This document shows, in pieces, positions 14,556 through 58,960 of a DNA stretch of 64,000 bases; position 1 is the first letter of the stretch, and every line of letters starts with the position of its first letter. The position numbers and the translations under genes are program-made. This DNA is from a bacterium (lineage in GTDB: Bacteria; Planctomycetota; JAFGQW01), in NCBI GenBank assembly GCA_030426805.1, contig JAUHXU010000001.1:605584-669583 (forward strand), written 5' to 3'. A model generated the notes under the pieces. It saw only the letters and a program-made list of their open reading frames with translations. It had not been told where the DNA came from and ran no database searches.

Positions 14556-15503
14556 ATGAAGCGACTCTGGATCGCGGCGTGTGCCGCATGCATCGCAGCG
14601 GCGACCCCGGCACAGAATCTGGTGACCAACGGTGATTTCGCCAACGGCCAGACCGGCTGGACGCAGGTCTCCTTCAACGACCCGCTCGGCACGACCGGGG
14701 TTCGCACCGCCGACGTCAACGGCAACTCGGAGTCGAGCATGGCGCTCTACGCCGACTTCAAGACGTTGACGCCCGTCATGTCGGCGGCCTACTCGAACAC
14801 CCCGTTCACGGCGGCCGCGGGGACCTACCCGTTCACCCTCGACATCAGCTGGGAGAAGCAAGTCACGACGCCGATTCCGTCGCCGAGCGTGAATCGCGTC
14901 GAGATCCGCCTCTACGACAACAACGTCACGCCACCGACGATGCTCACGTCGCAACGCCAGACGGTGCCGAGCCAGACCGGACTGATCGAACGCGCGACGC
15001 TGCAGGGCTCGTTCACGATCCCGTCAGCGGGCAGCTACTACATCGAGCTGTTCCTGCGCCACTCGAACTTGGCGGGTATTCCGTTCATCTGCAACGTCGA
15101 CGATGTCGCGCTCGCCGCCTACGGGGCAACGATCAACGCGACCGGCTCGGCGCGCGTCGGCGGCACGACGACGTTCAATCTCGTCGCACCGGCGGCGGCG
15201 AACAAGCCGTTCCAGGTTGCGTCGGCGTTCAGCCCGGGCCCGATCCCGGTGGGTGGCCGTTTCGTCGGCCTCCGACCGGACACGCTGTTCTCGCTGTCGG
15301 TCAGCGGCGCGCTGCCGAACACGTTCTTCAACTACGCGGGAATCCTCGACAACGCCGGTGTCGGGTCGGCGCAGCTTCGCATTCCGCGACTCGCGCCGAT
15401 CGTCGGCAACCCGATCCACACCGCGTTCGTGACGATCGACACCGGCTCGCCGAACAACATCCAGACGATCTCCAACACCTGGTCCTTCACGATCCAGCCG
15501 TGA
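14556..15503 (+). CDS. Secreted protein: CBM4/9-like jelly-roll plus shared C-terminal domain
   Basis: Signal peptide; NLVTNGDFANGQTGW start and VDDVAL end typical of galactose-binding-like folds; last ~125 aa resemble other C-termini in the window. Confidence 0.7.
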   Translation: MKRLWIAACAACIAAATPAQNLVTNGDFANGQTGWTQVSFNDPLGTTGVRTADVNGNSESSMALYADFKTLTPVMSAAYSNTPFTAAAGTYPFTLDISWEKQVTTPIPSPSVNRVEIRLYDNNVTPPTMLTSQRQTVPSQTGLIERATLQGSFTIPSAGSYYIELFLRHSNLAGIPFICNVDDVALAAYGATINATGSARVGGTTTFNLVAPAAANKPFQVASAFSPGPIPVGGRFVGLRPDTLFSLSVSGALPNTFFNYAGILDNAGVGSAQLRIPRLAPIVGNPIHTAFVTIDTGSPNNIQTISNTWSFTIQP

Positions 15504-15547
15504 GACCGTCCTTGCCGTAGGCAGCCGGATGGCGCATCGTTTCCGCG

Positions 15548-16195
15548 ATGCGCCCCAACGCCCTCCTCCTCGATCTCGACGGCACCCTGCTCGACTCGGT
15601 CGCGCTGATCCTCGCGTCGTATCGCCATACGTTCGCCGTCCACGGCTGTGACGCGGTCGACGACGCGGTGCTCGCGCCGGAACTCGGCACGCCATTGGCC
15701 GTCGTGCTCGCACGCTTTGCGACCGACGCCGACGCGGTGCCGGCGATGGTCGACACCTATCGCGATCACAACCGGGCGCACCACGACGCGATGGTGCAGG
15801 CATACGACGGCATGCCGGCAGTCGTCGAGGCCGCGGCCGAAGCCGGCCTCGCACTCGGCATCGTCACGAACAAGTCCGGGGCCGCGGCGCTGCAGGGGCT
15901 CGACGTGCTCGGCGTCCGCCGGCACTTCGCGACCGTCGTCAGCGCCGACGACGTGGATCGCCACAAGCCAGATCCCGAGCCGGTGCTCCGTGCCCTCGAT
16001 GCGCTCGACGTCACACCCGACCGAGCCGTATTCATCGGCGATTCCCCGCACGACCTCGATGCCGGCGCCGCCGCGGGTGTCCCGACCGGAGCCGCGCTCT
16101 GGGGGCCCTTTCCGCGGACCGCGCTGGAGCCACGCCGCCCGGCCTGGTGGTTCGAGCACCCGTCGGAGGTCCTCGGGGCGATCGGCCTCGCGTAA
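15548..16195 (+). CDS. HAD-IA hydrolase (PpaX/phosphoglycolate phosphatase-like)
   Basis: DLDGTLLDS, VTNK, KPDPEP and IGDSPHD motifs. Confidence 0.9.
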   Translation: MRPNALLLDLDGTLLDSVALILASYRHTFAVHGCDAVDDAVLAPELGTPLAVVLARFATDADAVPAMVDTYRDHNRAHHDAMVQAYDGMPAVVEAAAEAGLALGIVTNKSGAAALQGLDVLGVRRHFATVVSADDVDRHKPDPEPVLRALDALDVTPDRAVFIGDSPHDLDAGAAAGVPTGAALWGPFPRTALEPRRPAWWFEHPSEVLGAIGLA

Positions 16196-16227
16196 CGGCA
16201 CGCGAGGGGCCTGGTAGACTGGGGGCG

Positions 16228-18924
16228 ATGCCACGCCACGTCCCACTCCTCGCCGCCGCTCTCGCCCTCGTCGCCCTCGCGCTGTGGTGGTTGTCGGGGG
16301 ACGATCCGGCACCGGCCCCGACACCGCAGGCCCCGCCCGCCGCCGAAGCACCGGACCGGGCAGCCCCGCGACCGAAACCGGCACCGAGGCCAGCACGGGC
16401 ACCCGACACGCAGCCCACACCCCGGCCGGACGAGTCGACGCGGCCGGCGGCAGCGCCCGCCGAGCACCGCTCCGAGGCGTTCGGCACGGTGCGCACGCCG
16501 AAGGGCGAGCCGATCCACGGCGCCCACGTCGCGGCGATCCACGCCGGTCGCGTGCTCCGCCACACGACGACCGACACCGACGGCCGCTACGACCTCGGCT
16601 CGTTTCCCGACGTCGACGCCGCGCAGAAGCGCCCGCTCCCTATGGGATTGCCGGCACAGTTCCGCTTGTTCGCGAAGGCGCCCGGACGAGCGACCGTCGC
16701 CGAAGCGATTCGCCCCGGTGGCCCGACCGACTTCGTCTTGCCGGCCTCGACGGTGATCGTCGGCCACTTCGTGCGGGCCGATGGCGCACCGCTGTCCGCC
16801 TTCCCTGTGGACGTTCGCCCGGTGCCGATCATCGCCGGCTCGCCCAAGCGGATCGAGACCGACTCGACGGGCGGATTCCGTGTCGAGGTCGGCCCCGGCG
16901 AGTGGCACATCGACGGTCATGCGCCCGGCTGTTTTCACGACCGCACGGTCGTCGCCGCGGTCGCCGGCCGCGAGACCGTGGTGACGATTCGGCTCGACCC
17001 GACGATCCGCGTCACCGGCCGCGTGATCGACTCGGTGACCCGCGAGCCGGTCCCGGACGCCGGCGTCGTGATGCGCTACGATCGCGTCCACACCGACGCG
17101 GAGGGCCGGTTCGCGTTCGCCGACGTGCCGACGCGCCGCATCGACACGACGTCGTTGATCGGTCAACTCAGCGTTCACGCCGATGGCTACGCGGTCCACA
17201 CGCGCTCCCCACCGGTCGCGCCGGGCGGGGACCTCGACCTCGAGATCCCGATCGACCGCTATGCGTCGATCGACGGCCGCCTCGTCGGCGACGACGGCGC
17301 CGCGATCGCCGACGCGCCGGTCGTGCTGCGGTCGGCGCGGCGCGGCCCCGACGCGACGACCGATGGCCAGGGACGCTTCCGGATCGAACGCTGTCCGCCG
17401 GGGGCGTGGCAACTCACCACGCAGGTCCCGGGACACGCCCCCTATCGCTCGGCGGTTTTCACCCTCGCACCGGGAGAAACGCGCACGACGGTCTGCTCGC
17501 TCCGCGCCGGCGCGCGTCTCGCGATCACCGTGCGCGACGAAGCCGGCGAACCGATCTGGCGGGCCGGCGTCAACGCGATCCCGCTCGCCAGCACCGGCGG
17601 CGAACCGCGACGAGGGCGCACCCGCGCCGATGGCGTCGCAACATTCGACACGCTCGCGCCGGGCGCCGACTACCGCATCATCGTCGAGGCGAACGGCTAC
17701 GAAGCGCGGACGACCATCCTGCGCGCCGAGGCCGAACCGTCCGTATTCGACGTCACGCTTCGCGCCGGCGCGCCGCTGCGCGGTCGCGTGCTCGGCGTGA
17801 GTGCGGCATCGACCGGCGACGTACGCGTCGAAGCGCGGCCGTTCGCGACGCGACGCGACTTCCTGCTGAACCGCCCGCGGACTGCGCCCGTGGCGGAGGA
17901 CGGGACGTTCGCGTTCGATCGCCTCGCCCCCGGCCGCTGGGTGCTGTCGCTCGTCACGAAGGCAAAGCGCTCGCTCGTCGATGCCGAGCCGACGGTCGCC
18001 ACGGCGGGCGACGACGTCGCACTCCGCGCACGCGTCTACGCACCGTTGGCGATCGAAGGGGTCGTCGTCGACGCGGCGGACGGCAGCCCGGTCACCGAGC
18101 GCACGCTCTTTCTGACGCGGCTCGACGGGGAGACGCGCGCGCACGACGGCGTCGGCCGGTCACGCGCGACACCCGACGGCGGCTTCCAGCTGCGCGATCT
18201 CGCTGCGGGCACCTATGCGCTCGCCGCCAAGACGCGCGACGGACGGGTCACGGCCGCGCCGGTCCGCGTCGTGCTTCGACCCGGCGACCAGCCGGCCCAC
18301 GTGCGCCTCGTCGTCGACCGACTGCCGGTCGCGACGATCCGCGGGCGCGTCACGCGGCCCGGTGGCGAGCCGGTCGATCGCGGCGAGCACCCGATCGAGG
18401 TCCACGCGGTCGCGCAGGACACGGCGCAGCCGCTGCGCGTCCACAGCAACACCGACGCGACCGGTGCGTTCGCCGTCGAGTTGCCCCTCGGACGGACCTT
18501 CCGGCTGGTCGCGCGCCATCCCGAGTGGACGGGCGTCCCGGCCGTCGTGACACCGAGCGGGGACGACGCGCCGGTCGAACTCACGCTGCGGACCGCCGGC
18601 GCGGGCCTCCGCTGCACGCTCCTCGACAGCGACGGCGACCCGCTCGCCCGCGTCCGCGTCGACGTGCGCGATGCCCACGGTTCGCGCGTGACGCCGCGGC
18701 AATGGCTCGGGATGCGCGCCGCGTGGCGCGCTCACCGCGCGGGCGAGAGCCACCGCGCGCGCGAGGCGATCCTCGCCGGCACGATCACCGACGACCGCGG
18801 TCGCTTCGAGCGCGCGGGGCTCGAGCCCGGTGACTACACGCTGTGTGTGGCCGGCTTCCGTCCCGAGCCGATTCGCGTCGACACCGGCGCGCAATCCCGC
18901 ACGATCCGACTCCGGCCGCGGTGA
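16228..18924 (+). CDS. Membrane-anchored carboxypeptidase regulatory-like repeat protein
   Basis: N-terminal TM segment, Pro-rich linker, then repeated TDxxGRF/Y Ig-like units. Confidence 0.78.
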   Translation: MPRHVPLLAAALALVALALWWLSGDDPAPAPTPQAPPAAEAPDRAAPRPKPAPRPARAPDTQPTPRPDESTRPAAAPAEHRSEAFGTVRTPKGEPIHGAHVAAIHAGRVLRHTTTDTDGRYDLGSFPDVDAAQKRPLPMGLPAQFRLFAKAPGRATVAEAIRPGGPTDFVLPASTVIVGHFVRADGAPLSAFPVDVRPVPIIAGSPKRIETDSTGGFRVEVGPGEWHIDGHAPGCFHDRTVVAAVAGRETVVTIRLDPTIRVTGRVIDSVTREPVPDAGVVMRYDRVHTDAEGRFAFADVPTRRIDTTSLIGQLSVHADGYAVHTRSPPVAPGGDLDLEIPIDRYASIDGRLVGDDGAAIADAPVVLRSARRGPDATTDGQGRFRIERCPPGAWQLTTQVPGHAPYRSAVFTLAPGETRTTVCSLRAGARLAITVRDEAGEPIWRAGVNAIPLASTGGEPRRGRTRADGVATFDTLAPGADYRIIVEANGYEARTTILRAEAEPSVFDVTLRAGAPLRGRVLGVSAASTGDVRVEARPFATRRDFLLNRPRTAPVAEDGTFAFDRLAPGRWVLSLVTKAKRSLVDAEPTVATAGDDVALRARVYAPLAIEGVVVDAADGSPVTERTLFLTRLDGETRAHDGVGRSRATPDGGFQLRDLAAGTYALAAKTRDGRVTAAPVRVVLRPGDQPAHVRLVVDRLPVATIRGRVTRPGGEPVDRGEHPIEVHAVAQDTAQPLRVHSNTDATGAFAVELPLGRTFRLVARHPEWTGVPAVVTPSGDDAPVELTLRTAGAGLRCTLLDSDGDPLARVRVDVRDAHGSRVTPRQWLGMRAAWRAHRAGESHRAREAILAGTITDDRGRFERAGLEPGDYTLCVAGFRPEPIRVDTGAQSRTIRLRPR

Positions 18925-18925
18925 C

Positions 18926-20329
18926 CTACTCGATCTCGATGCGTAGCGAGTCGTAGATGTGGATCGGCGCGGTCAACGCGATCGCGCCCGCCCAGAACCG
19001 GACGCCGACCAGTCCCGACGCGGCAGGGATCGCCACGGTCGCGGTCGCCGTGCCGCTGCCGTCCAGGACGCCGTCCATCGCCTGGAACACGCCGGGCAGC
19101 GAGCCGGACAGGAAGAACAGCGCATCGGGCGCGAGCGGCACCGTGCCGGCGCCCGGCAACGGAATCCCCGGTGCGCGCGCGAACGCGCAGCGCACCGCGT
19201 ACGGCACCGACGGGCGCGCCGGATCGTCGAGGACGAGGGCGATCGACTGCCCGTTCTTCGGGGTGCCCGAGCGCGTGAGCCCGTCCCGCCACAGCCACAC
19301 CTCGTGGTCGGCCTGCGGGTTGCCGCCGCCGACGTTGTAGCGGTGCGCATACGCGAGGACGGTGCCGTCGCCGTTGATCGTCAGGCTGTCGTTCGGGCTG
19401 CCGACCGTGAGCCCGAGGCCGGTCGTCGCGGGCCGCAGGCCGGAGCCGTCGAAGTGCGCGACGTAGAGGTTGTCGCTCGTGTTCGTGTTGCCGCGCCGCG
19501 ACTTCCACGCGATGCGCTGGCCGTCGGACGAGAGCCAGACGCGCCGGTCCCGCCCGTTCGGCCACATCGACGCGTTGACGAGGTTCGTGCCGTCGGTGCG
19601 GACCGTGTAGATCTCCTCTTCTCCGGTCCCGGTGCCCTCGAACGCGCAGATCGTCGCGTCGCGATCGAGTCGCGGATACTGGATCGCGCCGCGCGTGAAT
19701 GCGGTCAGCGTCGTCGCCGACGAACCGTCGATGTTCGCGAGCCACACCTGATCGACGTTTGCAGCGTCTCGGCGGACGAACGCCACTTTCGTCCCGTCGC
19801 CACTGACGCAGCCGGTGACGAACCCGCCGGTGGCGTTGCTCACGTTGACCTGCTGTCCCGTGTTGATGTCGAGCACCTCGAAGTCGTAGCGGTTGTTCGC
19901 GGTGTCGAACGTCGTGTAGCCGATGTAGCGGCCGTCGCGCGACAGCGTCAGCCCGGTGTTCGCGCGCTTCGTGCCGGACAGCGTCGAGATCGGCTGGGCG
20001 GTCCCTCCGCCGGTCGGGATGATCCACACCTGCTGACCGGAGATGAATGCGAGCACGCGGCCGTCGCCGCTCATCGCGAGCGCGTACGGGATCGTCGCGG
20101 CACCGCCGGTCGTGAGTTGCTTCGGGCTCGGCGTCGCGGTCTGTGTCGAGAAGACCTCGAACGCGAAGTTCACCTCGCCCACCCACGCGAGCCACGATCC
20201 GTCGTCGCTCAGCACCGGGTAGTAGTCGTTCTGCGTGCCGCCGTTCATCGTGACCTGGGTCGACCGCTGGGCGGAAACCGCGCCCGCGAGCGCGGCCGCG
20301 AGCAGCATCGCGCCGATGAATCGTCGCAT
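18926..20329 (-). CDS. Secreted TolB/PD40-like beta-propeller plus shared C-terminal domain
   Basis: Signal peptide MRRFIGAMLL...VSAQ; repeats LSDDGSWLAW, SGDGRVLAF, SRDGRYIGY, SGDGTKVAF, SSDGQRIAW. Confidence 0.8.
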   Translation of the reverse strand: MRRFIGAMLLAAALAGAVSAQRSTQVTMNGGTQNDYYPVLSDDGSWLAWVGEVNFAFEVFSTQTATPSPKQLTTGGAATIPYALAMSGDGRVLAFISGQQVWIIPTGGGTAQPISTLSGTKRANTGLTLSRDGRYIGYTTFDTANNRYDFEVLDINTGQQVNVSNATGGFVTGCVSGDGTKVAFVRRDAANVDQVWLANIDGSSATTLTAFTRGAIQYPRLDRDATICAFEGTGTGEEEIYTVRTDGTNLVNASMWPNGRDRRVWLSSDGQRIAWKSRRGNTNTSDNLYVAHFDGSGLRPATTGLGLTVGSPNDSLTINGDGTVLAYAHRYNVGGGNPQADHEVWLWRDGLTRSGTPKNGQSIALVLDDPARPSVPYAVRCAFARAPGIPLPGAGTVPLAPDALFFLSGSLPGVFQAMDGVLDGSGTATATVAIPAASGLVGVRFWAGAIALTAPIHIYDSLRIEIE

Positions 20330-20416
20330 CGAATGCCTCCTCATCCTCCCCGCTCCCGCCGCTTCGCCGGCAATTGTCGCGCACCCGGTGGCGGGCGACA
20401 ATCCCCTGCCGACCGG

Positions 20417-21750: not shown

Positions 21751-21881
21751 CGTCACCCCTTTGCTCGAGGGCGTGCGCACGGCGCGAAGAGCGGTCACGG
21801 CGCGGAAGCGCCCGGGACTGGAGGGTTTAGTATCCGACCCCCGTTCGTTCAACCCCGGCAGACCCGGCTGCGGCACGCCAC

Positions 21882-22631: not shown

Positions 22632-22694
22632 GACACGGGCGCGAGGGTCACTCGCGCCCGTCGGTGTCGATGGCGGTGTCGGTCGTGCCGGCGG

Positions 22695-23483: not shown

Positions 23484-23601
23484 GACGGTGGTCCTCTCGT
23501 GCATCAGCGGTTCGGCATCGGCGGGGTCTCGGCCCCACGCGTCGGCACTACGCCGGCCGATCCCGCCACGCCCCCCGCATTCTCGCAGAAACCGCCGCGG
23601 G

Positions 23602-24897
23602 TCAGCGAAGCGTGAGTTCGTTGACCGCCGGATCGGTGATCAACGCGATGCCGAGCGGGGCGGCCGGATCGAGCACAAGCGCTTGGGCCCAAACGCGAAA
23701 CGTCAATGCGCGCCCGCCGATCGGCGTCAGGTCGAGGGTCGCCGTGGCCTGCCCCCCGGCGAGGACGCCGACGGCGCCGGACAACAGGCCACCGAGGCGG
23801 TTCGCGACGCTGGAGAACGTGATCGCGTCGACCGTCAGCGGGATCCGACGTCCGTCGGCGAGCGGAACGCCCGGGCGCGTGCCGCTCACGCCGAGCGCCA
23901 GCACGTACGGGCGGCCGGCCAGTGCGGGGTCCGTCACCTGCACGTCGATCGCCCAGCGATTCGCCTCGAGAGGCCGCCACCGAAGCGTCCGGCTCCCGAT
24001 CGGCACGACGCGGTACGCATCGCCGATGCCGAGCGTCCCGAGCTTCTGCGGCACGCCGCTCGTCACGTCGATCGACCAGAGGCCCTCCGACGTTCCGCCG
24101 TCCCACGCGGCGACGAGAAGCCGCGGGTTCGCGGCGCTCGCGCGCTCGACCGCGATCGAGTAGCCGCCGGCGAGCGCCGTGGACGTGTGCCACACGCGCG
24201 GCGTCGACTGCCCGAGATCGAGCACTTCGATCGAGCGACCGGTCGTACCGTTGCAGCAGGAGCCGGAGTAGATCGCGCCCGTGTTCGGATCGCGCGCTAT
24301 GCCGAACCGAAACTCGAACCCGGTCGCGACCGTCGTGAACGCGGAACCGTCCGGTTCGAGTCGAAACAGCGGCGTGTTCAACGTCGTCTGCCCGTCGGAG
24401 ACGAGCAGGTCGGCGGTGTCGACGTCGTAGTGGATGTTGCGCGGCGTGTAGAACGGCTCGCCGATGCCGGCGGCCATGCGGAGTGTCGAGGTGCTGCCCG
24501 CTTCGAGCACGCGCTCGATCGTGTGGTCGACGCGATTGGCGAATACGAGTGCGCCGTCGCCGTCGACCGTCAGGTCGGACATGTGGAACGGCGAGAAGAA
24601 CGCCGGGGATCCGAAGATCGTGCCGACGAGCGCGTGCTGCACCGGGTCGATCTGGACGACCGCGCCGAGCGACGCGTCGAACGCGAGGACGGTGCGGTTG
24701 TCCGGCGCCATCGTCGCGCTGATGATCGCCTGCGGACCGAGATTCGTCGTCGTGACGACGCCGGCGGGCGTGACGGTCGCGACGCCGTTGGCGCCGGCGA
24801 CGAACCAGCCCTGCGAATACCGCTGCGCACCGACGTCGTCGGTCGTCGCGACGGCGACGGTCAGTGCAATCGCCAGCCAGGTGAGATCGATGCGCAT
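23602..24897 (-). CDS. Secreted beta-propeller (NHL/SMP-30-like) plus shared C-terminal domain
   Basis: Signal peptide; blade-like repeats (MAPDNRTVL, TVDGDGALV, DVDTADLLV, RDPNTGAIY); paralog of 47992-49242. Confidence 0.7.
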   Translation of the reverse strand: MRIDLTWLAIALTVAVATTDDVGAQRYSQGWFVAGANGVATVTPAGVVTTTNLGPQAIISATMAPDNRTVLAFDASLGAVVQIDPVQHALVGTIFGSPAFFSPFHMSDLTVDGDGALVFANRVDHTIERVLEAGSTSTLRMAAGIGEPFYTPRNIHYDVDTADLLVSDGQTTLNTPLFRLEPDGSAFTTVATGFEFRFGIARDPNTGAIYSGSCCNGTTGRSIEVLDLGQSTPRVWHTSTALAGGYSIAVERASAANPRLLVAAWDGGTSEGLWSIDVTSGVPQKLGTLGIGDAYRVVPIGSRTLRWRPLEANRWAIDVQVTDPALAGRPYVLALGVSGTRPGVPLADGRRIPLTVDAITFSSVANRLGGLLSGAVGVLAGGQATATLDLTPIGGRALTFRVWAQALVLDPAAPLGIALITDPAVNELTLR

Positions 24898-38015: not shown

Positions 38016-38993
38016 TCACACGAGGTCCGAAACGACCGACGCCTCTTCCGTCAGCTCGGCGAGCGTCGTCGCGAACTTGTCGCGCCCGAACGCATCGAAC
38101 TCGATCCCGTCGACGATCTCGTAGCCGCCCCGCCCGGTGCAGCGGCACGCGAACGAGAAGATCGTGTTCTCCGGCACGCCGTAGTTGCCGCGCGACGGCA
38201 CCGCCATGCTGACCATCCGGTCGCCGGTGCCGTGCCACGCGTCACGCATGTGGTCGACCGCCGCCGACGCCGCCGACGCCGCCGACGAGGCGCCGCGCGC
38301 TTCGATGATCTGCGCGCCGCGCTGCTGGATCGTCTTGATGAAGTCGCCCTGCAACCACGCCTCGTCGAGGCGCGATGCCGCCGGCGTGCCGCCGATCGTC
38401 GCGTTCTTGTAGTCGGGGAACTGGGTGGCCGAGTGGTTGCCCCAGATGATCATGTCGGCGACCTCGGTCGTCTGGACGCCGGCTTTGTTCGCGAGCTGCG
38501 CGACGGCGCGGTTCTCGTCGAGGCGCGTCATCGCCGTGAAGCGCTCGTTCGGGACGTCCGGCGCGTTGTTCATCGCGATCCAGCAGTTCGTGTTGCACGG
38601 GTTGCCCACCGTGATCACGAACACGTCGGACGCCGCGACCGCCTGGATCGCCTTGCCCTGCCCGACGAAGATCGGGCCGTTCTCGCGGATCAGGTCGCTC
38701 CGCTCCATACCCTTCGAGCGCGGCTTCGAGCCGACGAGGAAGATCTGGTTGGCATCTTTGAACGCGACGTTGGGATCGTCGGAGAACTCGATGCCGTGCA
38801 GCAACGGGAACGCCGCATCGTCGAGTTCCATCGCGACGCCCTCGACCGCCTTCATCGCTGGCGGGATCTCGAGCATCTGCAGGATGATCGGCTGGTCGGG
38901 TCCGTAGCAATCGCCGGCGGCGAGGCGGAAGAGCAGGCTGTATCCGATGTTGCCGGCCGCGCCGGTCACCGCTACGCGCAACGGTTGAGTCAC
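38016..38993 (-). CDS. mdh: Malate dehydrogenase (MDH type 2)
   Basis: [53 protein letters not shown] and [11 protein letters not shown]. Confidence 0.97.
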
Positions 38994-39116
38994 GATTCGA
39001 TCTCCGAGGGCTCGAGGGTGGGATCGGCGGTGCTTCCGCCGACGTCGAGATGGAACCGCGAGAATACGTCGGCGGCGGGGTGCGGTCCAGCGGGAAACAC
39101 GGCAAAATGGGCGGTG

Positions 39117-39842
39117 ATGCCCGACTACGACGCCGTCTTCTTCGACGCCGGCTTCACGCTGCTCTCGATGGCCCCTTCGCTCGGCGAGGCCTACGCCCGC
39201 GCCGCCGAGGCGATCGGCCATCCGTTTCCGGCCGACCGCTTCCACGAAGTGGCCGTGCGGATCTGGCACGAAGAGCACCTGCCCCGGACGCGCCGCGACC
39301 TCCGGTCGTCCGAGGCGCTCGAGCGGCAATCGTGGTGGGACTACAACGCCGCGATCGTCGAGGCGCTCGAGCCCGAGGGCTTCACGCCGGACTTCGAGCG
39401 CTGGTTCGAGGAGCTCTACGCGTTCTTCGCGCGCCCCGACGTCTGGACGCCGATGCCCGGCGCGGTCTCGACGCTCGACGCGCTCGCGCAACGCGGCCTG
39501 CGGCTCGCGGTGATCAGCAACTGGGACTCCCGGTTGCGTCACGTTCTCGACGGCCACGACCTGTCGCGCCGCTTCGAGTTCGTGCTGACGAGCGCGGAAG
39601 CGGGTGTTCGCAAACCGAGTCCCGACATCTTCCGACAGGCGCTCGACAACGCCGGCGTCCCAGCCGATCGCGCACTGCACGTCGGCGACTCGTTCGAGGA
39701 CGACGTCGAAGGGGCGCGCACCGTCGGCATCACGCCGGTCCATCTGCGGTCACGAGGCGCGGGGAACCCGATCGCGACCGACCACGAGCACGACCACCAC
39801 ACGGTCTCCGCCCTCGACGAGTTGTTGGAGATCGTCGGATGA
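39117..39842 (+). CDS. HAD-IA hydrolase (REG-2-like)
   Basis: [20 protein letters not shown] and HVGDSFEDD motifs. Confidence 0.9.
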
Positions 39843-39852
39843 AGACAATCGG

Positions 39853-47754: not shown

Positions 47755-47991
47755 CCCACCGCCACCCCGGCCGATCCCGGCGGACGCAACCAGTTGAAAC
47801 GGCGCCACTTACCGGATCCGCTGCAGCGTCGAGCCCGGCACGGCCCGTGCGCTGCGCCGGGGCGTGAAATTTCGGGTTGGAAGTCGCCGCGCGCGGCGCC
47901 AATATAGGATGCCGCAATGAGGTCTCCGTCGCAGCCGCGATGGGCGACCGCGGCGCATCCGCGACCCACTCGCAAACCGGAGGACGAGAAC

Positions 47992-49242
47992 GTGAGACCC
48001 CGTAGGAACCCGCTGTGGCTGGCGATCCTCGGGATCGTCCTGCCCATCGCGAGCCTCGGGGCGCAGTGGCACGACGGCGGCTACATCGCGACGTCGGGCG
48101 ACGCGGTCTACCGCTTCACCGGTCGCGGCGAGACTCGCCTCCGCGAGATCGCGTCGAACCAGTGGGATGCGACCGAGGTCCGGATGGACCGCGACAATCG
48201 CCTCGCGCTCGTCGTCCTGCGCAACCGCGCGACGATCCTCCGCGTCGACCCCGAGACGCTCGCCACGGTCGGCACGCTGATCGCCGGCGCCCCGCTGATG
48301 CGCCCCGAAGCGATCGCGGTCGACCACCACGGCGACTACTTGATCAGCGACTCCGGTGCCAAGGCGATCTTCCGCCTCGCGCTCAACGGGCGGATCTCCA
48401 CGGTCGTCGTCGACCCGCGCCTGGACCACGTCGAGGGCGGCCTGCGCATCGACCCCGACACCGGCGACCTCCTCGTGATGAACACCGGCGCCGACGACAC
48501 GCTCTATCGCGTGTGGTGGGACGCGCGGGTGACGACGGTCGGCACGCGGTTCAACGGGCGCTTCGGATTCGACATCGACCTCAGCTCCGCCGACGTCTTC
48601 AGCGCGTCGTGCTGCTCGCCCCCGCACCTGACCGTGCTTCGACTCGCGCAGATGAGCGCGACGAAGTTCGTCCTGACGGCGCCGGCCCCGACGGGCTACT
48701 ACGCGGTTCGCGCCGACCGCGCGAGCACCCAGGACCCGCGACTGGTCGTGAGCCCGACCGGCCCGTACGGCGGCATCTGGTACGTGAACCTCACGTCCCG
48801 TGTCGTCACCCCGCTGCAAGTCGTCGGCCAGACGCTCTACTCGATCGATCACCTCGGCGGGCGCAACGTGCAATCGCGGCGCGTCGCGAGTGGCCTCTGG
48901 GAGATCCACCTCGATTTCCCCGGCCAGGCCGGCAACGGCTTCCTGACGCTGGTCAGTGCGACCGGCATCCGGCCGAGCCTCTTTCTCGGAGACGGTCGCC
49001 GCCTCAGCCTCGCGGTCGACGATCTGACGCGCTTCACCGTGGGCACGGAGTTGCCGGGTGTCTGGTGGAACAACCGGGGCGTGCTGGACCCGACCGGCCA
49101 CGCCGTCACCCACCTGTCGACGCGCCCGCTCGGACAGGCGCTCCACGGCATTCGCCTCTACATGTGCGCGGTCACCTTCGACCCTGCCGCCCCGCTCGGC
49201 ATCCGCACGGTCGCCGATCCGATCGTCGTCTTGATCGACTGA
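47992..49242 (+). CDS. Secreted beta-propeller plus shared C-terminal domain (paralog of 23602-24897)
   Basis: GGAGG SD before GTG; signal peptide ending LGAQ; shares MxxDNR, DxxTGDLLV, RFG, SCC, GxY.....RAS...PRL, DGRR and DPAAPLGI with its paralog. Confidence 0.75.
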   Translation: MRPRRNPLWLAILGIVLPIASLGAQWHDGGYIATSGDAVYRFTGRGETRLREIASNQWDATEVRMDRDNRLALVVLRNRATILRVDPETLATVGTLIAGAPLMRPEAIAVDHHGDYLISDSGAKAIFRLALNGRISTVVVDPRLDHVEGGLRIDPDTGDLLVMNTGADDTLYRVWWDARVTTVGTRFNGRFGFDIDLSSADVFSASCCSPPHLTVLRLAQMSATKFVLTAPAPTGYYAVRADRASTQDPRLVVSPTGPYGGIWYVNLTSRVVTPLQVVGQTLYSIDHLGGRNVQSRRVASGLWEIHLDFPGQAGNGFLTLVSATGIRPSLFLGDGRRLSLAVDDLTRFTVGTELPGVWWNNRGVLDPTGHAVTHLSTRPLGQALHGIRLYMCAVTFDPAAPLGIRTVADPIVVLID

Positions 49243-49245
49243 GCG

Positions 49246-51053: not shown

Positions 51054-51151
51054 GCTTCCTCTTCGCGCCTGGCGCGCGGCGGACTTGAGACTCATCGCCC
51101 GAATTGTATCGATTCGGGATGCAGACCGAGAGGGGCTGCCCGGCGGATCGC

Positions 51152-52936
51152 CTACCCGATCTTGAGCCGGGCGACGTCCGAGAGGGCCTCGACGAGCCCC
51201 GAGGCGTCGAAGATCGCCGCCTGCAGGTAGAACCGCTGGCCGGCCAGCGCTCCGCTCGCCGGGATCGGGGCGACGACCGTGCGGACGCCGCCGGAGAGCG
51301 TGCCGATCCACCCCGGCAGCCCGAACGACAGCGGCAACAGGTCGAGCCCGATGCCGAGGGTCGCGCCGCCGATCGGGGTCGTCGTGCGCACGCCGCTCGC
51401 GACGATCGCGTAGACGCGGCCGGCGGGCCCCGCGAGTCGCAGCGACATCGCCGAGCCCGGCACCGGCACACCGGCGGTGAACGCGAGGTGCGCCGCGAAC
51501 GCCGGATCGGCGGCGTTGGGGTTGCCGGGGGTCCCGCGGTCGCCGGCGCCGAACGGAAGCGTCGCCGCGGCGAAGTTCGCCGCGACGCCCGGGCCCGTCG
51601 GCACGATCCGCTCGGCCGCGACGCCGCTCGAGAACGGGAACGTCCCCGACGTGTAGCGGACGACGTCGATCGCGCCGCCCCACGGATCGTCGATCCGGAT
51701 CTCGTCGGCGCTGTTGGCGAGAAAGTGCGACTGCGGGACCCAGTCCGGCGAGAAGCCGCCGTTGGTGCGGGGGTCGGACGACCGGGCGATCACGATCGAT
51801 CCGCCCGGCTGGACCGGGAGGTTCTGCGTGATGAACTCGGCGTCCACGCCCTCGTCGCGAAACGTGAGGCCGATCATGTCGATCACGCGCGCGGTCGTGT
51901 TGCGCACTTCGACGTATTCGCCGAGGGCGTCCGACACCCGGGCGGGGTTCGGCATGAACTCGGAGACGACGAGGTCACCGACCCCGCGCGCGACGGTCGG
52001 GCCGGTGCCCCCCTCGTCGACCGGGTAGGTGACCGGCGTCAACTGGCCGCCGTCCACCGTGTATTGGTTGCCGTCGGTGCGAATGCGGATCGAACCGTTC
52101 GCCCAGATCCCGCCGAGCCGGCCGGTCCCCGCGGTCGTCTGATACGGCGCGACGACGGTCGGAAAGCGCGTCATGCGGTCGACGATCTCCACATGCGGGT
52201 GGCCGTACGGGTTGTTCAGCCCGCACGAGATGATCGTCGCTTCGGGCCGCGCCGCGTAGAACGTCGCCCAGTTCGACGACGTGTTGCTCCCGTGGTGGCC
52301 GAGACGAGCGACGTCGACGTCGGGGATCGCGCGAGCGACGGTCGTCTCGACGTCGGTCGTGCTGTTGCCGCCGCCGGTGAGATCGCCGCTGGTCCACAGC
52401 GCGAAGTTCCCGTAGGTCAACACGAGCCCGATGCTCGCGGCGTTCTCGAACTGTGGGCCATTGCGGATCTCGACCGACGCATTGCCCTTGACGCGCCCGT
52501 TGACGCACACGCACTCGACGACGACGCCCGCGCCCAGATCGATACGGTCCCCGGGGTTGATCGCGCGTCGCCGCGCGCCGAGCACGGACGCGTAGTCGCG
52601 GTAGCTCGCGGTCGTCGGCACCTGGTGAAACGTGCCACGGTCGAACGCGACCTGCGGCACGAATCCCCCCCGCGCAACCTCGTCGAGCCCACCGATGTGG
52701 TCTGCGTCGTAGTGCGACGCGACCATGTAGGTCAGGTTCGTGAGGCCCGCGGCGCGCATCGCCGGGATCACGACCGCGGTGCCCATCCCGGTGAAGCCCG
52801 CGTCGATCAACAGCGACTGGCCGCTCGGCGACACGATGAGCGTCGCGTCGCCTTGTCCGACGTTGAGGCAGTGAATCTGGAGCGGCTGTGCCGTCGCTGC
52901 GGCAGCAAGGGCGATCCCGATCAGCAGCGCGCGCAT
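51152..52936 (-). CDS. Secreted ComEC/Rec2-type metallo-beta-lactamase-fold hydrolase plus lamin-tail domain plus shared C-terminal domain
   Basis: LNVGQGDATLI, LIDAG, SHYDADHIGG, GHHGS and NPYGHP; LTD motif LVVSEFMPNP...GEYVEVRN...GTPG. Confidence 0.88.
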   Translation of the reverse strand: MRALLIGIALAAAATAQPLQIHCLNVGQGDATLIVSPSGQSLLIDAGFTGMGTAVVIPAMRAAGLTNLTYMVASHYDADHIGGLDEVARGGFVPQVAFDRGTFHQVPTTASYRDYASVLGARRRAINPGDRIDLGAGVVVECVCVNGRVKGNASVEIRNGPQFENAASIGLVLTYGNFALWTSGDLTGGGNSTTDVETTVARAIPDVDVARLGHHGSNTSSNWATFYAARPEATIISCGLNNPYGHPHVEIVDRMTRFPTVVAPYQTTAGTGRLGGIWANGSIRIRTDGNQYTVDGGQLTPVTYPVDEGGTGPTVARGVGDLVVSEFMPNPARVSDALGEYVEVRNTTARVIDMIGLTFRDEGVDAEFITQNLPVQPGGSIVIARSSDPRTNGGFSPDWVPQSHFLANSADEIRIDDPWGGAIDVVRYTSGTFPFSSGVAAERIVPTGPGVAANFAAATLPFGAGDRGTPGNPNAADPAFAAHLAFTAGVPVPGSAMSLRLAGPAGRVYAIVASGVRTTTPIGGATLGIGLDLLPLSFGLPGWIGTLSGGVRTVVAPIPASGALAGQRFYLQAAIFDASGLVEALSDVARLKIG

Positions 52937-53102
52937 GGTCCCTCGTTCCTCATTCGTCTCACCACGCCCAGAACCTATCACCGATCGGGGTCACGGACCA
53001 GCGCACCCTGGCCGGTCGGTGCGCCGCTCCGACCACGGCCTTGAAATGCGCCGCGCCGGCACTCTAAGGCTCTCGGTGACGACACTCTCGATCGGAGACC
53101 GC

Positions 53103-54629: not shown

Positions 54630-54642
54630 GAATGCGTCGGCG

Positions 54643-56391
54643 TCAGTCGCCGACGCGACGCCGGACCGTCCACGCGCCGTACGACACGGCCTCGCGGAAG
54701 TGCGTGCGGATGTGCGCGTCGAGGCGGTCGGCGCCGCGATACGCGCGGGCCTCGTAGCTCGGGTCGCCCTCGAGGTTCTCGCGCAAGATCACCCATCGGA
54801 CGCGGTTGCGCTCGAGCTCGGCGATCATCTCGCGCTGGATCGCCGGCTCGGTCGTCATGCCGGGTTCGAGCATGTGTCGCCGCACGCCCGGACGTCGACC
54901 CGCGATCCAATAGGTGCGCGTCGGGCACATGAACACGTCCGCGTGATCCCGGAGGCCGACGTAGATCGGGTCGTCCGCGGCGGTGCGCTCATGCACGTAG
55001 CGGACCGCCGCGATCTCGTCGGCGTCGCGAAAGAGCCGCGCCGCGAGCGGGTTCGCGTCGGGCCCGGGCGCCATCAGCACCGCGGTGTCACCCCGCGACA
55101 GCAGTTCGGACGCGCCGCGACGGAGCGCGCTCAGCTCGTCGGTGACGAGGGCCGGTGCGCGCCGAACGAGCCAGCGCTGATCCCACGCGCCGACCGGTAG
55201 CGTCAGGAACGCGACGAGCGCGACCGCGAGTACGCGCTCGGCGCGTCGCAGCGCGAGCCCACGGTCGAACACGAACGGTCCGAGCAGCGCCACGAACGGC
55301 ACCATCGCATGGTAGTGGAAGCGGTCGGCACGGCTCAGGAAGTAGTGGCCGAACAACGTGAATGCGAGCCAGACGACGAACTCGGGGCGCCCGAGTCGCG
55401 CACGTGTGCACTGCCACGCGACGAGTGCCGCCGCCGCGACGATGAAGATTCTCGGGAGCGCGCTGGGGGACGTGATCCCGACGGCGAGGGTGCCGGCTCC
55501 GATGAGCAACGCCAGTCCGGCGGCGACGAGCCGCGCCACACCGCTTCGCCGCAGCGCGATCCAGACGAACGGAGCCGCGATCGCCGCGGCCGCCGCGAGT
55601 CCCGCGGGGTCGAGCGCGAGGGCGAGGATCCGGTGCTGCTCGAGGTGCTCGCCCGGAAACGCGATCATGTCGTCCCACAACAGCGCCAATGCGTCGCGGT
55701 AGCGAAACGCATAGACACCGAGGACGATCACGACCGGGACGGCGAACGCGCAGCAGCGACGGAACCAGCCCGCGCGGTGTTCGGCGTGGAGGACGTCGAG
55801 CACGAGCGTCACGCCGACCGCGAGGCCCACGTAGCCGCCGAAGTTGAGCTTCGTCAGCGCCCCGATGCCGACGACGACGCCCGCTGCGGCGAGCCAGGTC
55901 GCCGGCCGCCGCGTCCCGCGCTCGAGTCCGACGAGGGCGAGCAAGAGGCCCGCGAACGAGAACGCGAGGCCGTTGAACGAGTAGTTCGTGAACGAGGCGC
56001 CGATCGCGACGGCCGCGAACAGTGTCCACCCCGTCGCCGCCCCCGTCGACAGGCGCCGGGCTCGGCGCAGGTAGAGGAACCACGCGGCGAGCAGGAGCAC
56101 GTAGATCGCCGCCTGCACGAGCCGCTCGGCGACGACCGACGGTCCGAGCGCGCCGAACGCGGCGGCGTTCAGCCGGTAGTTGAGCGCCGGGTACATCGTC
56201 CAGAAGTCGACGTGCGGCCGCAGCCCTCGCTGGATCAGCATCGCGTCGACGAGGTTGACCGGCTCGTCGAGCAGCGCGAGTTGCATCGTCAGAAACTGAA
56301 CGACGTGAAGCCCGACGTAGGCGATCAGCAGGAGAGCGAAGAGCCACGGGAGGGCTCGTCGTCGGGTGACTCGGTCCAAGGCGTTCTCCAC
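54643..56391 (-). CDS. Multi-TM membrane protein, GT-C glycosyltransferase-like
   Basis: LDEP...GLRPHVDFWTMYP and LTKLNFG motifs; more than 10 TM segments; soluble C-terminal domain. Start uncertain. Confidence 0.6.
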   Translation of the reverse strand: MENALDRVTRRRALPWLFALLLIAYVGLHVVQFLTMQLALLDEPVNLVDAMLIQRGLRPHVDFWTMYPALNYRLNAAAFGALGPSVVAERLVQAAIYVLLLAAWFLYLRRARRLSTGAATGWTLFAAVAIGASFTNYSFNGLAFSFAGLLLALVGLERGTRRPATWLAAAGVVVGIGALTKLNFGGYVGLAVGVTLVLDVLHAEHRAGWFRRCCAFAVPVVIVLGVYAFRYRDALALLWDDMIAFPGEHLEQHRILALALDPAGLAAAAAIAAPFVWIALRRSGVARLVAAGLALLIGAGTLAVGITSPSALPRIFIVAAAALVAWQCTRARLGRPEFVVWLAFTLFGHYFLSRADRFHYHAMVPFVALLGPFVFDRGLALRRAERVLAVALVAFLTLPVGAWDQRWLVRRAPALVTDELSALRRGASELLSRGDTAVLMAPGPDANPLAARLFRDADEIAAVRYVHERTAADDPIYVGLRDHADVFMCPTRTYWIAGRRPGVRRHMLEPGMTTEPAIQREMIAELERNRVRWVILRENLEGDPSYEARAYRGADRLDAHIRTHFREAVSYGAWTVRRRVGD

Positions 56392-56497
56392 CGGATGGAT
56401 GCCGCGATCGGCGGCCCGAGTATACGCCGCGCGCTCCCCAAAGCAAAACGGCCGGCGCTGGGCGCCGGCCGTCTCGCATCGTTGTATCGTCCGCGGT

Positions 56498-58960
56498 CTA
56501 CTGGACCTTGACGCGCGACACGTTCGAGAAACCCGAGACCACGCCACCGACGGAGAACATCGCGAGGCCGTCGACCTCGATGCCCGTCAGCGCGTTCGCC
56601 ACGGCCGGCGCGAACGCGTAGACCGTGTTCGGGAAGCTCGCACCCGCGTGGTTCGGGAAGTGGAACGGGCTGCCCGCGGCCGCCGGCATCGAGAAACCGA
56701 GCGCGGTGATCGTGTCCGGGCGCAGACCCATCGCCTCGCCGAAGCCGGCCTGGCGCGACGTGTCGAGCGAGAACAGCACCCACCCCTCGGTGTAGCCGGC
56801 CGGAAGGCTCGTCAACTGCACGCGGAGATCGCCGGCGTTGTTGCTGATCAGGCTCAGCTTCGCACCGGAATCGTCCCGCCCCGCACCCAGGCCGCTCGCG
56901 ACGAGCGCGAAGTCCGCGTCGACGCCGGCCGTCTCGGTGTGGCCGTCCTGCGCGATCGACGTCGCGGTGACCTCGATTGCCCAGATGCCGCTCGTCGGGT
57001 TCTGCACGAACACGTTCTCGAGCGTGTCGATCGTGTTCGCACTGCCGCCGGACGTGCTGTAGTTACCCGTCAGCAGGCCGTTGTTGCCCCAGTAGACGGT
57101 GTTGTCCGGTGCCGTGACCTTCAGCGTGAGGTCGTTGATGCGGTGGACCGACGAGTTCGCCGCACCGGCGGGATCGGCGTAGTTCATCGACACCTTCAAC
57201 TCGGGCGTGCCCGACTTGACCCACACGAGGTAGGTCTTCGTCGCACCCTGCGTCAGAACGTCGAGTTCGTCGAGCACGAGCGACTGCTTGCGCTTGTCCC
57301 ACGCGTCCTGGACGCTCGGCATGCCGTAGCCCTGGTGAACGCGCGTCATGTCGTGGCCGGTGCCCGAGAACGAGTACTGGCGCGCGAAGTTGACGAGGAT
57401 GCACTTCGTCGTCGTCATGTGCGGCCGGTTCGTGAACCGGGCGGCATTGCCCGTCGTCGCGAACTGGTGGCCGAACGCCCCGTCGGTGTACATCTCGAGG
57501 AGAAGCCCCACGTGGCCGGCCGTCGTCGGCGTCGCGCCGGACGTGCCGCCGAACGACGTCGTGTAGTTCGTCCCGTTGGAACCGGTCGAGCGGATGTTGT
57601 CGTAGTAGGCCGAGATGTCCGGCTTGATGCGGCCGTCGGATGCCGGGCCGATGCTTCCGGAGTTCGACCACGTGTCATCGCCCGTGGCCGCCGTGTTCTG
57701 GTGACGGAAACCGCCGACCGAGATCATGTTCTTCGCCCACGCCTGCGGACGCGACGGCGGTGCGCCGGCGTTGCTCTGGCTCTGGGTGTGTGCGATGTCG
57801 TACTTGAACAGGATGTCGTCCATCTGCGACGAGACCGACGTGTAGAGCGTCGTGCGCCCACCGCCCCACGATGCCGTCATGAACATCGCGCGATAGATGT
57901 CGTTCGGGTCGACGGCCTGCGCGGTCATCGAATCGCGGTTGGACCCGATCGCACCACTCGACGCCGCGATGCACTGCGCATCCGGAACGAGGCCGCGATA
58001 GATCGCGCTCACGCCGCGGGCGAAGATGATGCCGTTGACGCTGTTGCCGTGGCTGTCACGGAGCGTCGTCGTGTGACGGATCGGCGCGCTGCGATACGGC
58101 GTCGCGGCGAACTCGGTGTGGGCGTCGAAGATGCCCTCGGTGTTGTAGCCGCGGATCCCCTTGCCCGTGTAGCCGTTCGGCGACTGCGGCTCGAGGTAGT
58201 TCGCACCACCCTGGATCCGTGCGATGTCGACGTCCTTCTCGATCGGCGTCCAGCGATCGATCCACAGCACGTCGTTCCACTCCATCACCGAGCGCATCTG
58301 GGCGTCGGTCATGCCGACGTCGACGAGAATGCTGCCGCGGTGCTCGTTGACGACGTGCACACCGGCCTCGCGCAGGCGCGCGACGAAGGCCGCATGCCCC
58401 TGCGCGCTCCAGTCGACCGGCATCACGTTGTAGCGACGCGTCGGGAAGCCGTTGCTCGTGACGAGTTCGTCGATCAGTTCCTCTTCGAGGCGGTAGGCGG
58501 TGTGGAACTCACCGACCCAGCGCACGAACGGCAGCGACGCGACGTGGCTCGTCACCGCGCGAGGCATCCGCACGACGGCGCACTGCCACGGGATGAAGCG
58601 ATACACCGCGACACCGGCGTCCTCGAGGATCGCGCGATACTCGTCGGTGATCGTCGTCATGAACTGCACGAGGAACAGCTCGTTCGCCGCCGACGCACGC
58701 AGCGAAGCGGGAACGGTCGGCACCGACTCGAGCGGATCGAACGTGCCGTAGCGCAGCATCACCCGGTAGTCGGGCTTCGCGAGACGCGTCCAACGATTGC
58801 CACCGTCGCGACTGATGCGCGCGATGCCTTCCCCTACCTGCACGGTGGCGCCGGCCACCTCGAACTCGCGCGACTCGGCGCGGTCGGCATCCTGTGCCGT
58901 ACCGCCCGCCGCGAACGCGAGCACGCATCCCAGCCCCATGGCGAGATATCGCCTACGCAT
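56498..58960 (-). CDS. Secreted S8 subtilase plus divergent shared C-terminal domain
   Basis: Signal peptide and prodomain; HGNSVNG, SQSNAG, DGRIKPD, FGGTSGATP and QGYG; P-domain-like NDLTLKV...ENVFV. Confidence 0.9.
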   Translation of the reverse strand: MRRRYLAMGLGCVLAFAAGGTAQDADRAESREFEVAGATVQVGEGIARISRDGGNRWTRLAKPDYRVMLRYGTFDPLESVPTVPASLRASAANELFLVQFMTTITDEYRAILEDAGVAVYRFIPWQCAVVRMPRAVTSHVASLPFVRWVGEFHTAYRLEEELIDELVTSNGFPTRRYNVMPVDWSAQGHAAFVARLREAGVHVVNEHRGSILVDVGMTDAQMRSVMEWNDVLWIDRWTPIEKDVDIARIQGGANYLEPQSPNGYTGKGIRGYNTEGIFDAHTEFAATPYRSAPIRHTTTLRDSHGNSVNGIIFARGVSAIYRGLVPDAQCIAASSGAIGSNRDSMTAQAVDPNDIYRAMFMTASWGGGRTTLYTSVSSQMDDILFKYDIAHTQSQSNAGAPPSRPQAWAKNMISVGGFRHQNTAATGDDTWSNSGSIGPASDGRIKPDISAYYDNIRSTGSNGTNYTTSFGGTSGATPTTAGHVGLLLEMYTDGAFGHQFATTGNAARFTNRPHMTTTKCILVNFARQYSFSGTGHDMTRVHQGYGMPSVQDAWDKRKQSLVLDELDVLTQGATKTYLVWVKSGTPELKVSMNYADPAGAANSSVHRINDLTLKVTAPDNTVYWGNNGLLTGNYSTSGGSANTIDTLENVFVQNPTSGIWAIEVTATSIAQDGHTETAGVDADFALVASGLGAGRDDSGAKLSLISNNAGDLRVQLTSLPAGYTEGWVLFSLDTSRQAGFGEAMGLRPDTITALGFSMPAAAGSPFHFPNHAGASFPNTVYAFAPAVANALTGIEVDGLAMFSVGGVVSGFSNVSRVKVQ

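Follow-up and report, generated by a model that had tools for sequence, protein, structure and literature searches.

A C-terminal beta-sandwich domain on many secreted proteins of certain Planctomycetota lineages, a putative common localisation tag

Introduction

The locus considered here raises the question of why secreted proteins with dissimilar bodies should end alike. The window, by which we mean the whole stretch of 64,000 nucleotides that was analysed, encodes six secreted proteins for which a sequence-only reading had claimed one common C-terminal domain, proposed as a folded, lineage-specific tag for export, surface display or docking to an S-layer. The question thus has two parts, namely whether the tails form one family and whether that family is likely to act as an address for exported proteins.

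Results

Five of the six proteins carried the domain where the sequence-only reading had put it, while the sixth, an S8 protease, could not be shown to belong with them. The five comprise a CBM-like secreted protein (320 aa; 14541..15503, + strand; tail domain envelope 15138-15494), a PD40/TolB-like propeller protein (491 aa as listed; 18926..20401, - strand; envelope 18932-19273), two NHL-like propeller paralogs, NHL1 (431 aa; 23602..24897, - strand; envelope 23617-23967) and NHL2 (441 aa; 47917..49242, + strand; envelope 48874-49236), and a protein with a ComEC-type metallo-beta-lactamase and a lamin-tail domain (MBL/LTD; 609 aa; 51152..52981, - strand), the tail domain of which is divergent (envelope 51158-51478). 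With the last 135 aa as BLASTP query against the six window proteins, pairwise E among the five ranged from 1e-17 to 3e-3, as exemplified by NHL1 with NHL2 (2e-17 and 6e-18), CBM-like with TolB-like (1e-9 and 3e-9), TolB-like with NHL1 (5e-7), CBM-like with NHL2 (1e-5) and TolB-like with MBL/LTD (3e-3). A second-round family HMM, made from 239 paralogs of the source genome, scored the five tails at 41-125 bits (CBM-like 124.8, NHL2 117.5, NHL1 109.6, TolB-like 103.2, MBL/LTD 40.8) and the S8 protease at 5.0; the MBL/LTD tail reached E 5e-10 with this HMM in a search against all genome ORFs. Judged from the translations, all six proteins, S8 included, start with a signal-peptide-like N-terminus closing on A-Q. 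As for identities, Pfam recognised PD40 (E 5e-11) in the TolB-like propeller, which is not TolB itself (66.6 bits to the TolB model vs. a cut-off of 343), as well as Lactamase_B (E 7e-11) and LTD (E 5e-10) in MBL/LTD; NHL1 matched no Pfam family, the CBM-like tail matched nothing in Pfam or NCBIfam, and NHL2, when used as query for related loci, returned none.

Many genome-wide hits had been predicted, and the family HMM indeed detected the domain in 289 ORFs of the source genome (E<=1e-3), corresponding to 241 of 3,584 roughly called genes, or some 5-7% of all its genes. The domain ended fewer than 10 residues before the stop in 284 of the 289, and no ORF held two domains both passing 1e-3; departures from a single C-terminal placement included one tandem case and one N-terminal case, the latter with the domain directly behind the signal peptide and ahead of a Kelch propeller. 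The prediction that the domain would always be C-terminal largely held, both here and in public data, where it ended 0-8 residues from the protein end in 150 of 150 listed representatives. The carriers fell into at least 48 passenger groups (50% coverage), of which 27 have a single member, and this bears out the many-passengers-one-tail layout. Among 80 full-length carriers scanned, 21 had Pfam matches (LVIVD, PD40, SGL/Vgb_lyase, Laminin_G_3, DUF7948+SBBP, Beta_helix, arylsulfotransferase, FG-GAP and Peptidase_M14); these passengers, together with the MBL+LTD protein of the window, are of typical extracellular types.

A signal peptide had been expected on every carrier, and signal-peptide-like N-termini were strongly enriched. 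The strict pattern (K/R, a hydrophobic stretch, a small residue and Q) was present in 169 of 284 carriers vs. 221 of 1,717 other long GC3-rich ORFs, and, seen from the other side, the domain sits on 135 of the 400 genes having this pattern, i.e., about a third. The carrier signal peptides mostly expose Gln, and the source genome has a glutaminyl cyclase gene.

The expectation of a folded module was supported by AlphaFold, which modelled the last 125 aa of the CBM-like protein with confidence (pLDDT 97.6, pTM 0.90) as a compact Ig-like beta-sandwich of ~119-125 aa, predicted to comprise some ten strands plus a short helix. VIA-align matches to this model included the MG domain of complement C3 (Z 8.7), intimin D0 (Z 8.4) and alpha-2-macroglobulin (Z 8.1-8.2), and the list was flat, falling from Z 8.7 only to 7.5 over the best 50 matches; Foldseek gave E 2.5e-3 and a TM of ~0.45 at best. 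The likeness of the predicted structure to the Ig-like superfold (MG, Big/intimin, V-set) is one of fold level and assigns no family. As the sequence-only reading had noticed, there is neither a transmembrane helix nor a basic tail, the domain closing on a beta-strand with proline as final residue in 86 of 284 and a mean net charge of +1.7. Its junction with the passenger displayed no conserved motif and no unusual composition.

No name was found for the domain, in agreement with the earlier claim: searches of Pfam (2025 copy), NCBIfam (release 20) and PDB sequences gave no match for it, no Pfam family was matched by more than one of the 99 tails searched against Pfam and NCBIfam, and no paper on it came up in our literature search. 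Among public sequences, 8,996 cluster representatives have the domain (50% identity clusters). Homologues from an alignment search (n=7) and cluster members (n=15, from 10 representatives) bore the sole name 'hypothetical protein', and an Atlas search matched unnamed Planctomycetota clusters only. The notion of a lineage-specific domain was not upheld in its narrow sense, since several families of the phylum carry it (56 of 301 sampled genomes). Its distribution by family was all-or-none (f5 7/7, f12 5/5 and f23 6/6 vs. f4 0/15, f13 0/15, f22 0/10 and f26 0/10), and at loci from five other lineages (genomes G098, G209, G011, G156 and G004) 8 of 8 hits ended 0-4 residues before the stop.

Phylogenetic profiling had been suggested as a way to a co-occurring translocon or peptidase, and yielded neither. 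In the source genome, which is 90.8% complete, the type IX secretion system (T9SS) markers TIGR04183, SprA and PorV were not found: TIGR04183 gave one sub-threshold match genome-wide, outside the six proteins (19.1 bits, cut-off 23), SprA (TIGR04189) gave none with a model that was also silent in every control genome, and PorV (PF19572) gave none with a model positive in the B. thetaiotaomicron control. One secreted C25-family peptidase with H-G and C motifs is encoded (contig C3, 281277-282947), but as a PorU-like processing enzyme this family did not track the domain: 40 of the 56 genomes with the domain and 130 of the 245 without it have the family (170 of 301 overall), and none was detected in G156, a closed domain-positive genome. 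An extra Omp85 paralog fared no better as translocon, with three in the source genome but one in positive genomes such as G011 (97% complete); likewise secretins, with six in the source genome, were present in 298 of 301 genomes, whether or not these had the domain, and glutaminyl cyclase (13 of 56 positive, 7 of 245 negative genomes) was enriched but not required. Two outer-membrane-like proteins beside tagged genes, L108 and L115, lie in operons with multihaem cytochromes, look like porin-cytochrome conduits and were set aside as tag partners; a homolog occurs in G156, and the same query found none in G011 or G098, which are both domain-positive. No conserved machinery was found near tagged genes, where the best neighbour family, CarboxypepD_reg-repeat proteins (17 of 46, p=0.007 uncorrected), was alone in standing out.

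Discussion

We propose, with a rough probability of 0.55, that the domain is a common localisation tag of Sec-exported proteins in certain Planctomycetota lineages, its function being putative. This proposal builds on what was directly observed, i.e., tail homology, number, position, variety of passengers, enrichment in signal peptides, clade-wise distribution and no named relative, together with the predicted fold. What has thus survived of the original suggestion is a real, folded and unnamed domain at the extreme C-terminus of many signal-peptide proteins; its role as a tag did not gain the co-occurring translocon or peptidase that was sought. We surmise that carriers, synthesised with a signal peptide at the N-terminus, would pass the inner membrane by Sec, and that the compact Ig-like beta-sandwich of ~119 residues at their end may then be recognised by one common partner. 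Recognition by this partner, and any docking, export or cleavage that follows, are all steps that we infer.

By analogy with dockerin or SLH modules, the partner may, tentatively, hold the carrier at the cell surface. Dockerin and SLH modules are small, mostly C-terminal and rarely N-terminal, and bind diverse secreted enzymes to a common surface scaffold; the tail domain is similarly one small module on many secreted proteins, mostly C-terminal with a rare N-terminal case. Neither dockerin nor SLH had a Pfam match among the 99 tails, and, unlike the dockerin, which folds as an EF-hand-like pair, the tail domain is predicted to be a beta-sandwich. No scaffold protein with repeated, cohesin-like receptor domains was identified in an unsystematic search.

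It is also conceivable, and only slightly less likely, that the partner moves the carrier across the outer membrane, as happens with the T9SS CTD of Bacteroidota. The likenesses are a single folded Ig-like sandwich that terminates numerous unrelated proteins exported by Sec, carriers that number from tens to hundreds in a genome, the lack of a transmembrane helix, and signal peptides mostly exposing Gln along with a glutaminyl cyclase gene, reminiscent of the Q-rule of Bacteroidetes, in which signal peptides expose Gln, as set out in PMC5837995. Unlike in the T9SS, however, there is no sequence match (type A CTD, TIGR04183 / PF18962, matched none of the six proteins at E<=0.1 and none of the 99 tails), SprA and PorV were not found, and the phylum is Planctomycetota rather than Bacteroidota. 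The fold may differ as well: PMC11285876 describes the T9SS CTD as a compact sandwich with seven strands arranged 3+4, and our 125-aa model has about ten strands and a helix; no T9SS CTD was among the fold matches listed, and families beyond those listed may include one. Since the domain can precede a Kelch propeller, a free C-terminus seems not strictly needed, which counts against a cleaved signal of the T9SS kind. A bolder version, which we regard as speculative, is that a cargo-tag system unrelated to T9SS might route about a third of Sec-exported proteins (135 of 400) to the surface via a putative receptor or translocon, as a PVC counterpart of type IX secretion, here with a Bacteroidetes-like Gln rule.

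A comparable case may exist elsewhere in the PVC superphylum. For the Akkermansia muciniphila sulfatase Amuc0953, a T9SS-like CTD was proposed from a predicted structure, and its authors suggest CTD-dependent surface display in a PVC bacterium lacking T9SS (PMC13524802). Our family profile matched none of three genomes (an A. muciniphila MAG and two Verrucomicrobiae genomes), and the Amuc0953 CTD thus appears to be a parallel case rather than the same family. The contrast with PEP-CTERM drawn by the sequence-only reading was also sound: in place of a short motif, a transmembrane helix and a basic tail, there is a folded domain of ~119 aa finishing in a beta-strand, and exosortase (PF09721) was absent from the matches in the source genome.

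Among the alternatives, the one that survives best, though we consider it unlikely, is that of a generic Ig-like end-domain, which would serve as stabiliser, spacer or cap rather than as an address and was made abundant by massive duplication of one or a few secreted propeller families. Indeed, 118 of the 241 carriers belong to one expanded propeller family and 28 to a second group, and the domain tree largely tracks passenger groups (65 label changes; minimum 46, shuffled ~118), suggesting that much of the count came from gene duplication and not from shuffling of the tag; the purely generic fold matches and the failure to find dedicated machinery point the same way. Generic Ig-type domains are, however, usually tandem or internal, in contrast to the terminal placement seen here with no significant tandem, and duplication of propellers does not account for unrelated passengers that include a beta-helix, an M14 peptidase, an MBL nuclease-like protein, an arylsulfotransferase and LamG, nor for at least one public protein, P0007, the 153 aa of which comprise only a hydrophobic leader and the domain.

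Less probable still is a role in ligand binding, as a carbohydrate-binding or adhesive module that would fix enzymes and propellers to an external substrate and not to the cell. A beta-sandwich of CBM size ending secreted enzymes is compatible with this idea, as are the GH-associated beta-sandwiches in the list of fold matches (dextranase 5axg, Z 8.1; GH2 6hpd, Z 7.8) and the occasional N-terminal placement, which occurs among binding modules. CBM binding faces are usually aromatic, whereas the domain is poorer in aromatics than its passengers (W 0.8% vs. 1.5%, Y 1.9% vs. 2.9%); moreover, no Pfam CBM family was found on the 99 tails, and the passengers are mostly propellers, in which no glycan-active enzyme can be recognised.

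PPC (pre-peptidase C-terminal) domains are ~70 aa and mostly on peptidases, and a cleavable PPC-like pro-domain, to be cut off after it has helped the passenger to fold or held it inactive while it is exported, would fit a C-terminal beta-sandwich on secreted proteins, M14 peptidases included, but is improbable given that PPC (PF04151) matched 0 of 99 tails (a weak match, E 0.025, lies outside the tail, at residues 89-170 of the CBM-like passenger), that most carriers are non-enzymatic propellers requiring no inhibition, and that the junction is unremarkable.

Should the domain be an address label, as we favour, it would mark the surface and secreted proteins of a set of Planctomycetota that are nearly all uncultured, and point to a route of secretion or anchoring as yet undescribed for the PVC superphylum. 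Its profile would label thousands of 'hypothetical proteins' as exported, and would provide a handle for a partner search by phylogenetic profiling or pull-down.

The sixth protein of the window, an S8 subtilase (838 aa; 56498..59014, - strand; last ~140 aa at 56501-56920), was rejected as a family member on statistics: besides its low HMM score, hhalign gave a probability of 0.5% with the single sequence and 3.9% (pairwise E 0.011) once 9 orthologous S8 proteases had been aligned, so that membership is not demonstrable. No paralog of this tail was found among 38,842 genome ORFs by phmmer and jackhmmer, and its conservation was limited to 8 orthologous S8 proteases. Nevertheless, the 86 columns aligned by hhalign are co-linear and reach the extreme C-terminus, and a low-confidence model (mean pLDDT 52) resembles the family model in strand-helix-strand order and spacing, with the helix at the common L-x-P-D-T motif, making the S8 tail a possible, very remote relative of the family.

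A C-terminal domain common to five of the six window proteins

The sequence-only reading had ascribed one C-terminal module to six secreted proteins of the window, an attribution that stood for five of them and failed for the S8 protease. When the last 135 residues of each were searched by BLASTP against a database of the six window proteins, links were found between NHL1 and NHL2 (2e-17), the CBM-like and TolB-like proteins (1e-9), TolB-like and NHL1 (5e-7), CBM-like and NHL2 (1e-5) and TolB-like and MBL/LTD (3e-3); a family HMM of 239 genome paralogs gave these five tails 41-125 bits. Pfam and NCBIfam recognized PD40, Lactamase_B plus LTD and Peptidase_S8 in the passengers of the six translated ORFs and no domain in any of the six tails. 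The S8 tail was rejected as a family member, as it yielded only short BLASTP matches in the six-protein database (0.005-0.05), 5 bits with the family HMM, no paralog in the genome and an hhalign probability of 0.5% alone or 3.9% with its orthologs, its conservation being limited to 8 orthologous S8 proteases. The hhalign alignment spanned 86 columns, was co-linear and reached the C-terminus, and a low-confidence model of the S8 tail (mean pLDDT 52) formed a helix where the L-R-P-D-T motif common to both lies, spaced from the flanking strands as in the family model. Given this co-linearity and the like spacing in the low-confidence model, we surmise that the S8 tail may possibly be a very remote relative of the domain.

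Copy number, position and signal peptides

The genome (5.58 Mb, six contigs, 90.8% complete, ~70% G+C; window at C2:605584-669583) was searched as 38,842 six-frame ORFs of at least 70 aa. The six-tail HMM recovered 258 ORFs at E<=0.01, including 240 below 1e-5, of which 233 had the domain 0-4 residues from the stop, 6 at 5-9 residues and 1 internally. The expectation of many, C-terminal copies was largely borne out by a second-round HMM, which found 289 ORFs at E<=1e-3, with the domain <10 residues from the stop in 284. The other five comprise two domains ending 11-13 residues before the stop, one weak match (13 bits), a propeller protein (C3:300724-302592) in which a further, divergent copy lies behind the domain and runs up to the stop (its last third scoring 17.9 bits), and C5:1158273-1159871, the only N-terminal placement among the 289, with a signal peptide, the domain at residues 46-153 (33 bits) and then a Kelch propeller. 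The double tail may be a sign that tails of this kind make up a larger superfamily. Rough gene calling gave 3,584 genes, of which 241 are carriers.

Signal peptides, scored with a home-made pattern rather than a trained predictor, were predicted to accompany the domain always; enrichment was confirmed, universality was not. The strict pattern (K/R, a hydrophobic run of 9-22, a small residue, Q) was present in 169/284 carriers vs. 221 of 1,717 other ORFs of at least 300 aa with high GC3; the relaxed version, which is unspecific, matched 244/284 vs. 936/1,717. Conversely, the strict pattern picked out 400 genes, and 135 of them bear the domain.

Fold and distribution of the domain

With a median length of 119 aa, the domain carries a net charge averaging +1.7, lacks cysteine in 181/284 copies and ends in a strand. 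That the tail has no name in Pfam or NCBIfam held for an alignment of 99 tails, made up of the window's 5 and another 94 taken from 20 retrieved loci, with no family common to two tails and a best E of 0.02-0.03; a profile search of PDB sequences gave a best E of only 0.12, and we found no description of the domain in the literature. AlphaFold2 with this alignment predicted roughly ten strands plus a single short helix (pLDDT 97.6, pTM 0.90). Foldseek found no PDB match for the model at E<=1e-3, the best being nanobodies at TM ~0.45. VIA-align over 48,161 chains gave a flat ranking, headed by a complement C3 MG domain at Z 8.7 and still at 7.5 by rank 50; intimin, alpha-2-macroglobulin and antibody V domains were among the matches. 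As modeled, the domain is a generic Ig-like sandwich without a specific relative; the fold of the CTD, the domain at the C-terminus of type IX secretion (T9SS) cargo, is treated in PMC11285876.

Among 1.84 billion public cluster representatives, the profile matched 8,996 at E<=1e-3, 4,178 at 1e-10 and 163 at 1e-30, and among the matches listed the match ended 0-8 residues from the protein end in 150/150. At least one representative (P0007, 153 aa) comprises a hydrophobic leader and the domain, nothing else. The nearest Atlas clusters were unnamed and mostly from Planctomycetota. Within this phylum, 56 of 301 sampled genomes passed E<=1e-5, presence or absence following family lines. At least 150 copies were found in each of the three species sampled from the class of our genome and in a MAG with a ribosomal protein S4 74% identical to that of our genome; five other lineages had 61, 51, 22, 16 and 3 (up to 150 candidates scored), counts that are low because the profile was trained on a single genome. 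At loci from the lineages of G098, G209, G011, G156 and G004, 8/8 domains ended 0-4 residues before the stop. The profile had no match in an Akkermansia MAG, two Verrucomicrobiae genomes and one 'Planctomycetales' MAG; the T9SS-like CTD route proposed in Akkermansia (PMC13524802) is thus a parallel case involving another family.

What the domain may do

Based on positional constraint, the range of extracellular passenger types, signal peptides and clade-wise presence, a localization tag appears to be the best fit, with a probability of roughly 0.55. The rare N-terminal and tandem placements make us lean to a docking module over a cleaved signal. A generic structural end-domain spread via gene duplication is a less probable account. 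The 241 carriers fell into 48 passenger groups at 50% passenger coverage (118, 28, 12, 7, 6 downward, with 27 singletons), and a FastTree of 239 domains required 65 passenger-label changes, vs. a minimum of 46 and 115-121 with shuffled labels; whole-gene duplication dominates this history, superimposed on many separate passenger types. Pfam matched 21 of 80 full-length carriers scanned, with LVIVD, PD40, SGL/Vgb_lyase, Laminin_G_3, DUF7948+SBBP (5), Beta_helix (5), arylsulfotransferase, FG-GAP (3) and Peptidase_M14, and left 59 without any match. A substrate-binding module seems unlikely; tryptophan and tyrosine are rarer in the domain than in the passengers. Least likely of all is a cleavable pro-domain.

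Candidate partners of the putative localization tag

No T9SS CTD, SprA, PorV or exosortase was found in the 90.8% complete genome, and no tag partner emerged among the candidates and neighbors tested. The single secreted Peptidase_C25 (gingipain/PorU family; C3:281277-282947, E 3e-38), in which the H-G and C motifs are present, was rejected as partner: the family occurs in 170/301 genomes, 40/56 positive but also 130/245 negative for the domain. Neither the number of Omp85 paralogs (three Omp85/POTRA proteins here, C2:527365-529389, C6:400335-402641 and C2:363013-365424) nor secretins (six genes) discriminated between positive and negative genomes. Neighbor families of tagged genes gave a weak signal only: of the genome's 46 CarboxypepD_reg-repeat proteins, 17 are encoded no more than two genes away from a carrier (p=0.007, uncorrected), and two large proteins of this type are located in the window at 16147-18924 (+) and 4238-6562 (-). 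Two outer-membrane-like proteins beside tagged genes were dismissed since they belong to paralogous operons (C2:789869-792236 and C6:71918-74649), each encoding a lipoprotein-like multihaem cytochrome with at least seven CxxCH motifs and an outer-membrane-barrel-like protein of no known family ending in F. These operons, whose synteny is kept in the distant G156, a closed 6.6-Mb genome positive for the domain, resemble porin-cytochrome conduits for electrons.

Glutaminyl cyclase, patchy in the phylum (20/301), was enriched yet not obligatory (13/56 positive vs. 7/245 negative genomes), and was rejected as a required partner. The gene in our genome lies outside the window (C2:519069-519758; Glu_cyclase_2, E 1.4e-87). 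Signal peptides here mostly end in a small residue followed by Gln, and Gln came first among the polar residues behind the hydrophobic run in 177/244 tagged proteins vs. 246/936 other ORFs. Together with the cyclase gene, this resembles the 'Bacteroidetes Q-rule', deemed Bacteroidetes-specific by its authors (PMC5837995); a term search of that article did not turn up Planctomycetes.

Two other window ORFs, as listed, have long N-termini without a match: ~470 residues in an MFS transporter (11148-13718, -) and ~250 in a lactate/malate dehydrogenase (38016-39743, -), probably reflecting start codons placed too far upstream in GC-rich DNA, or possibly fusions.
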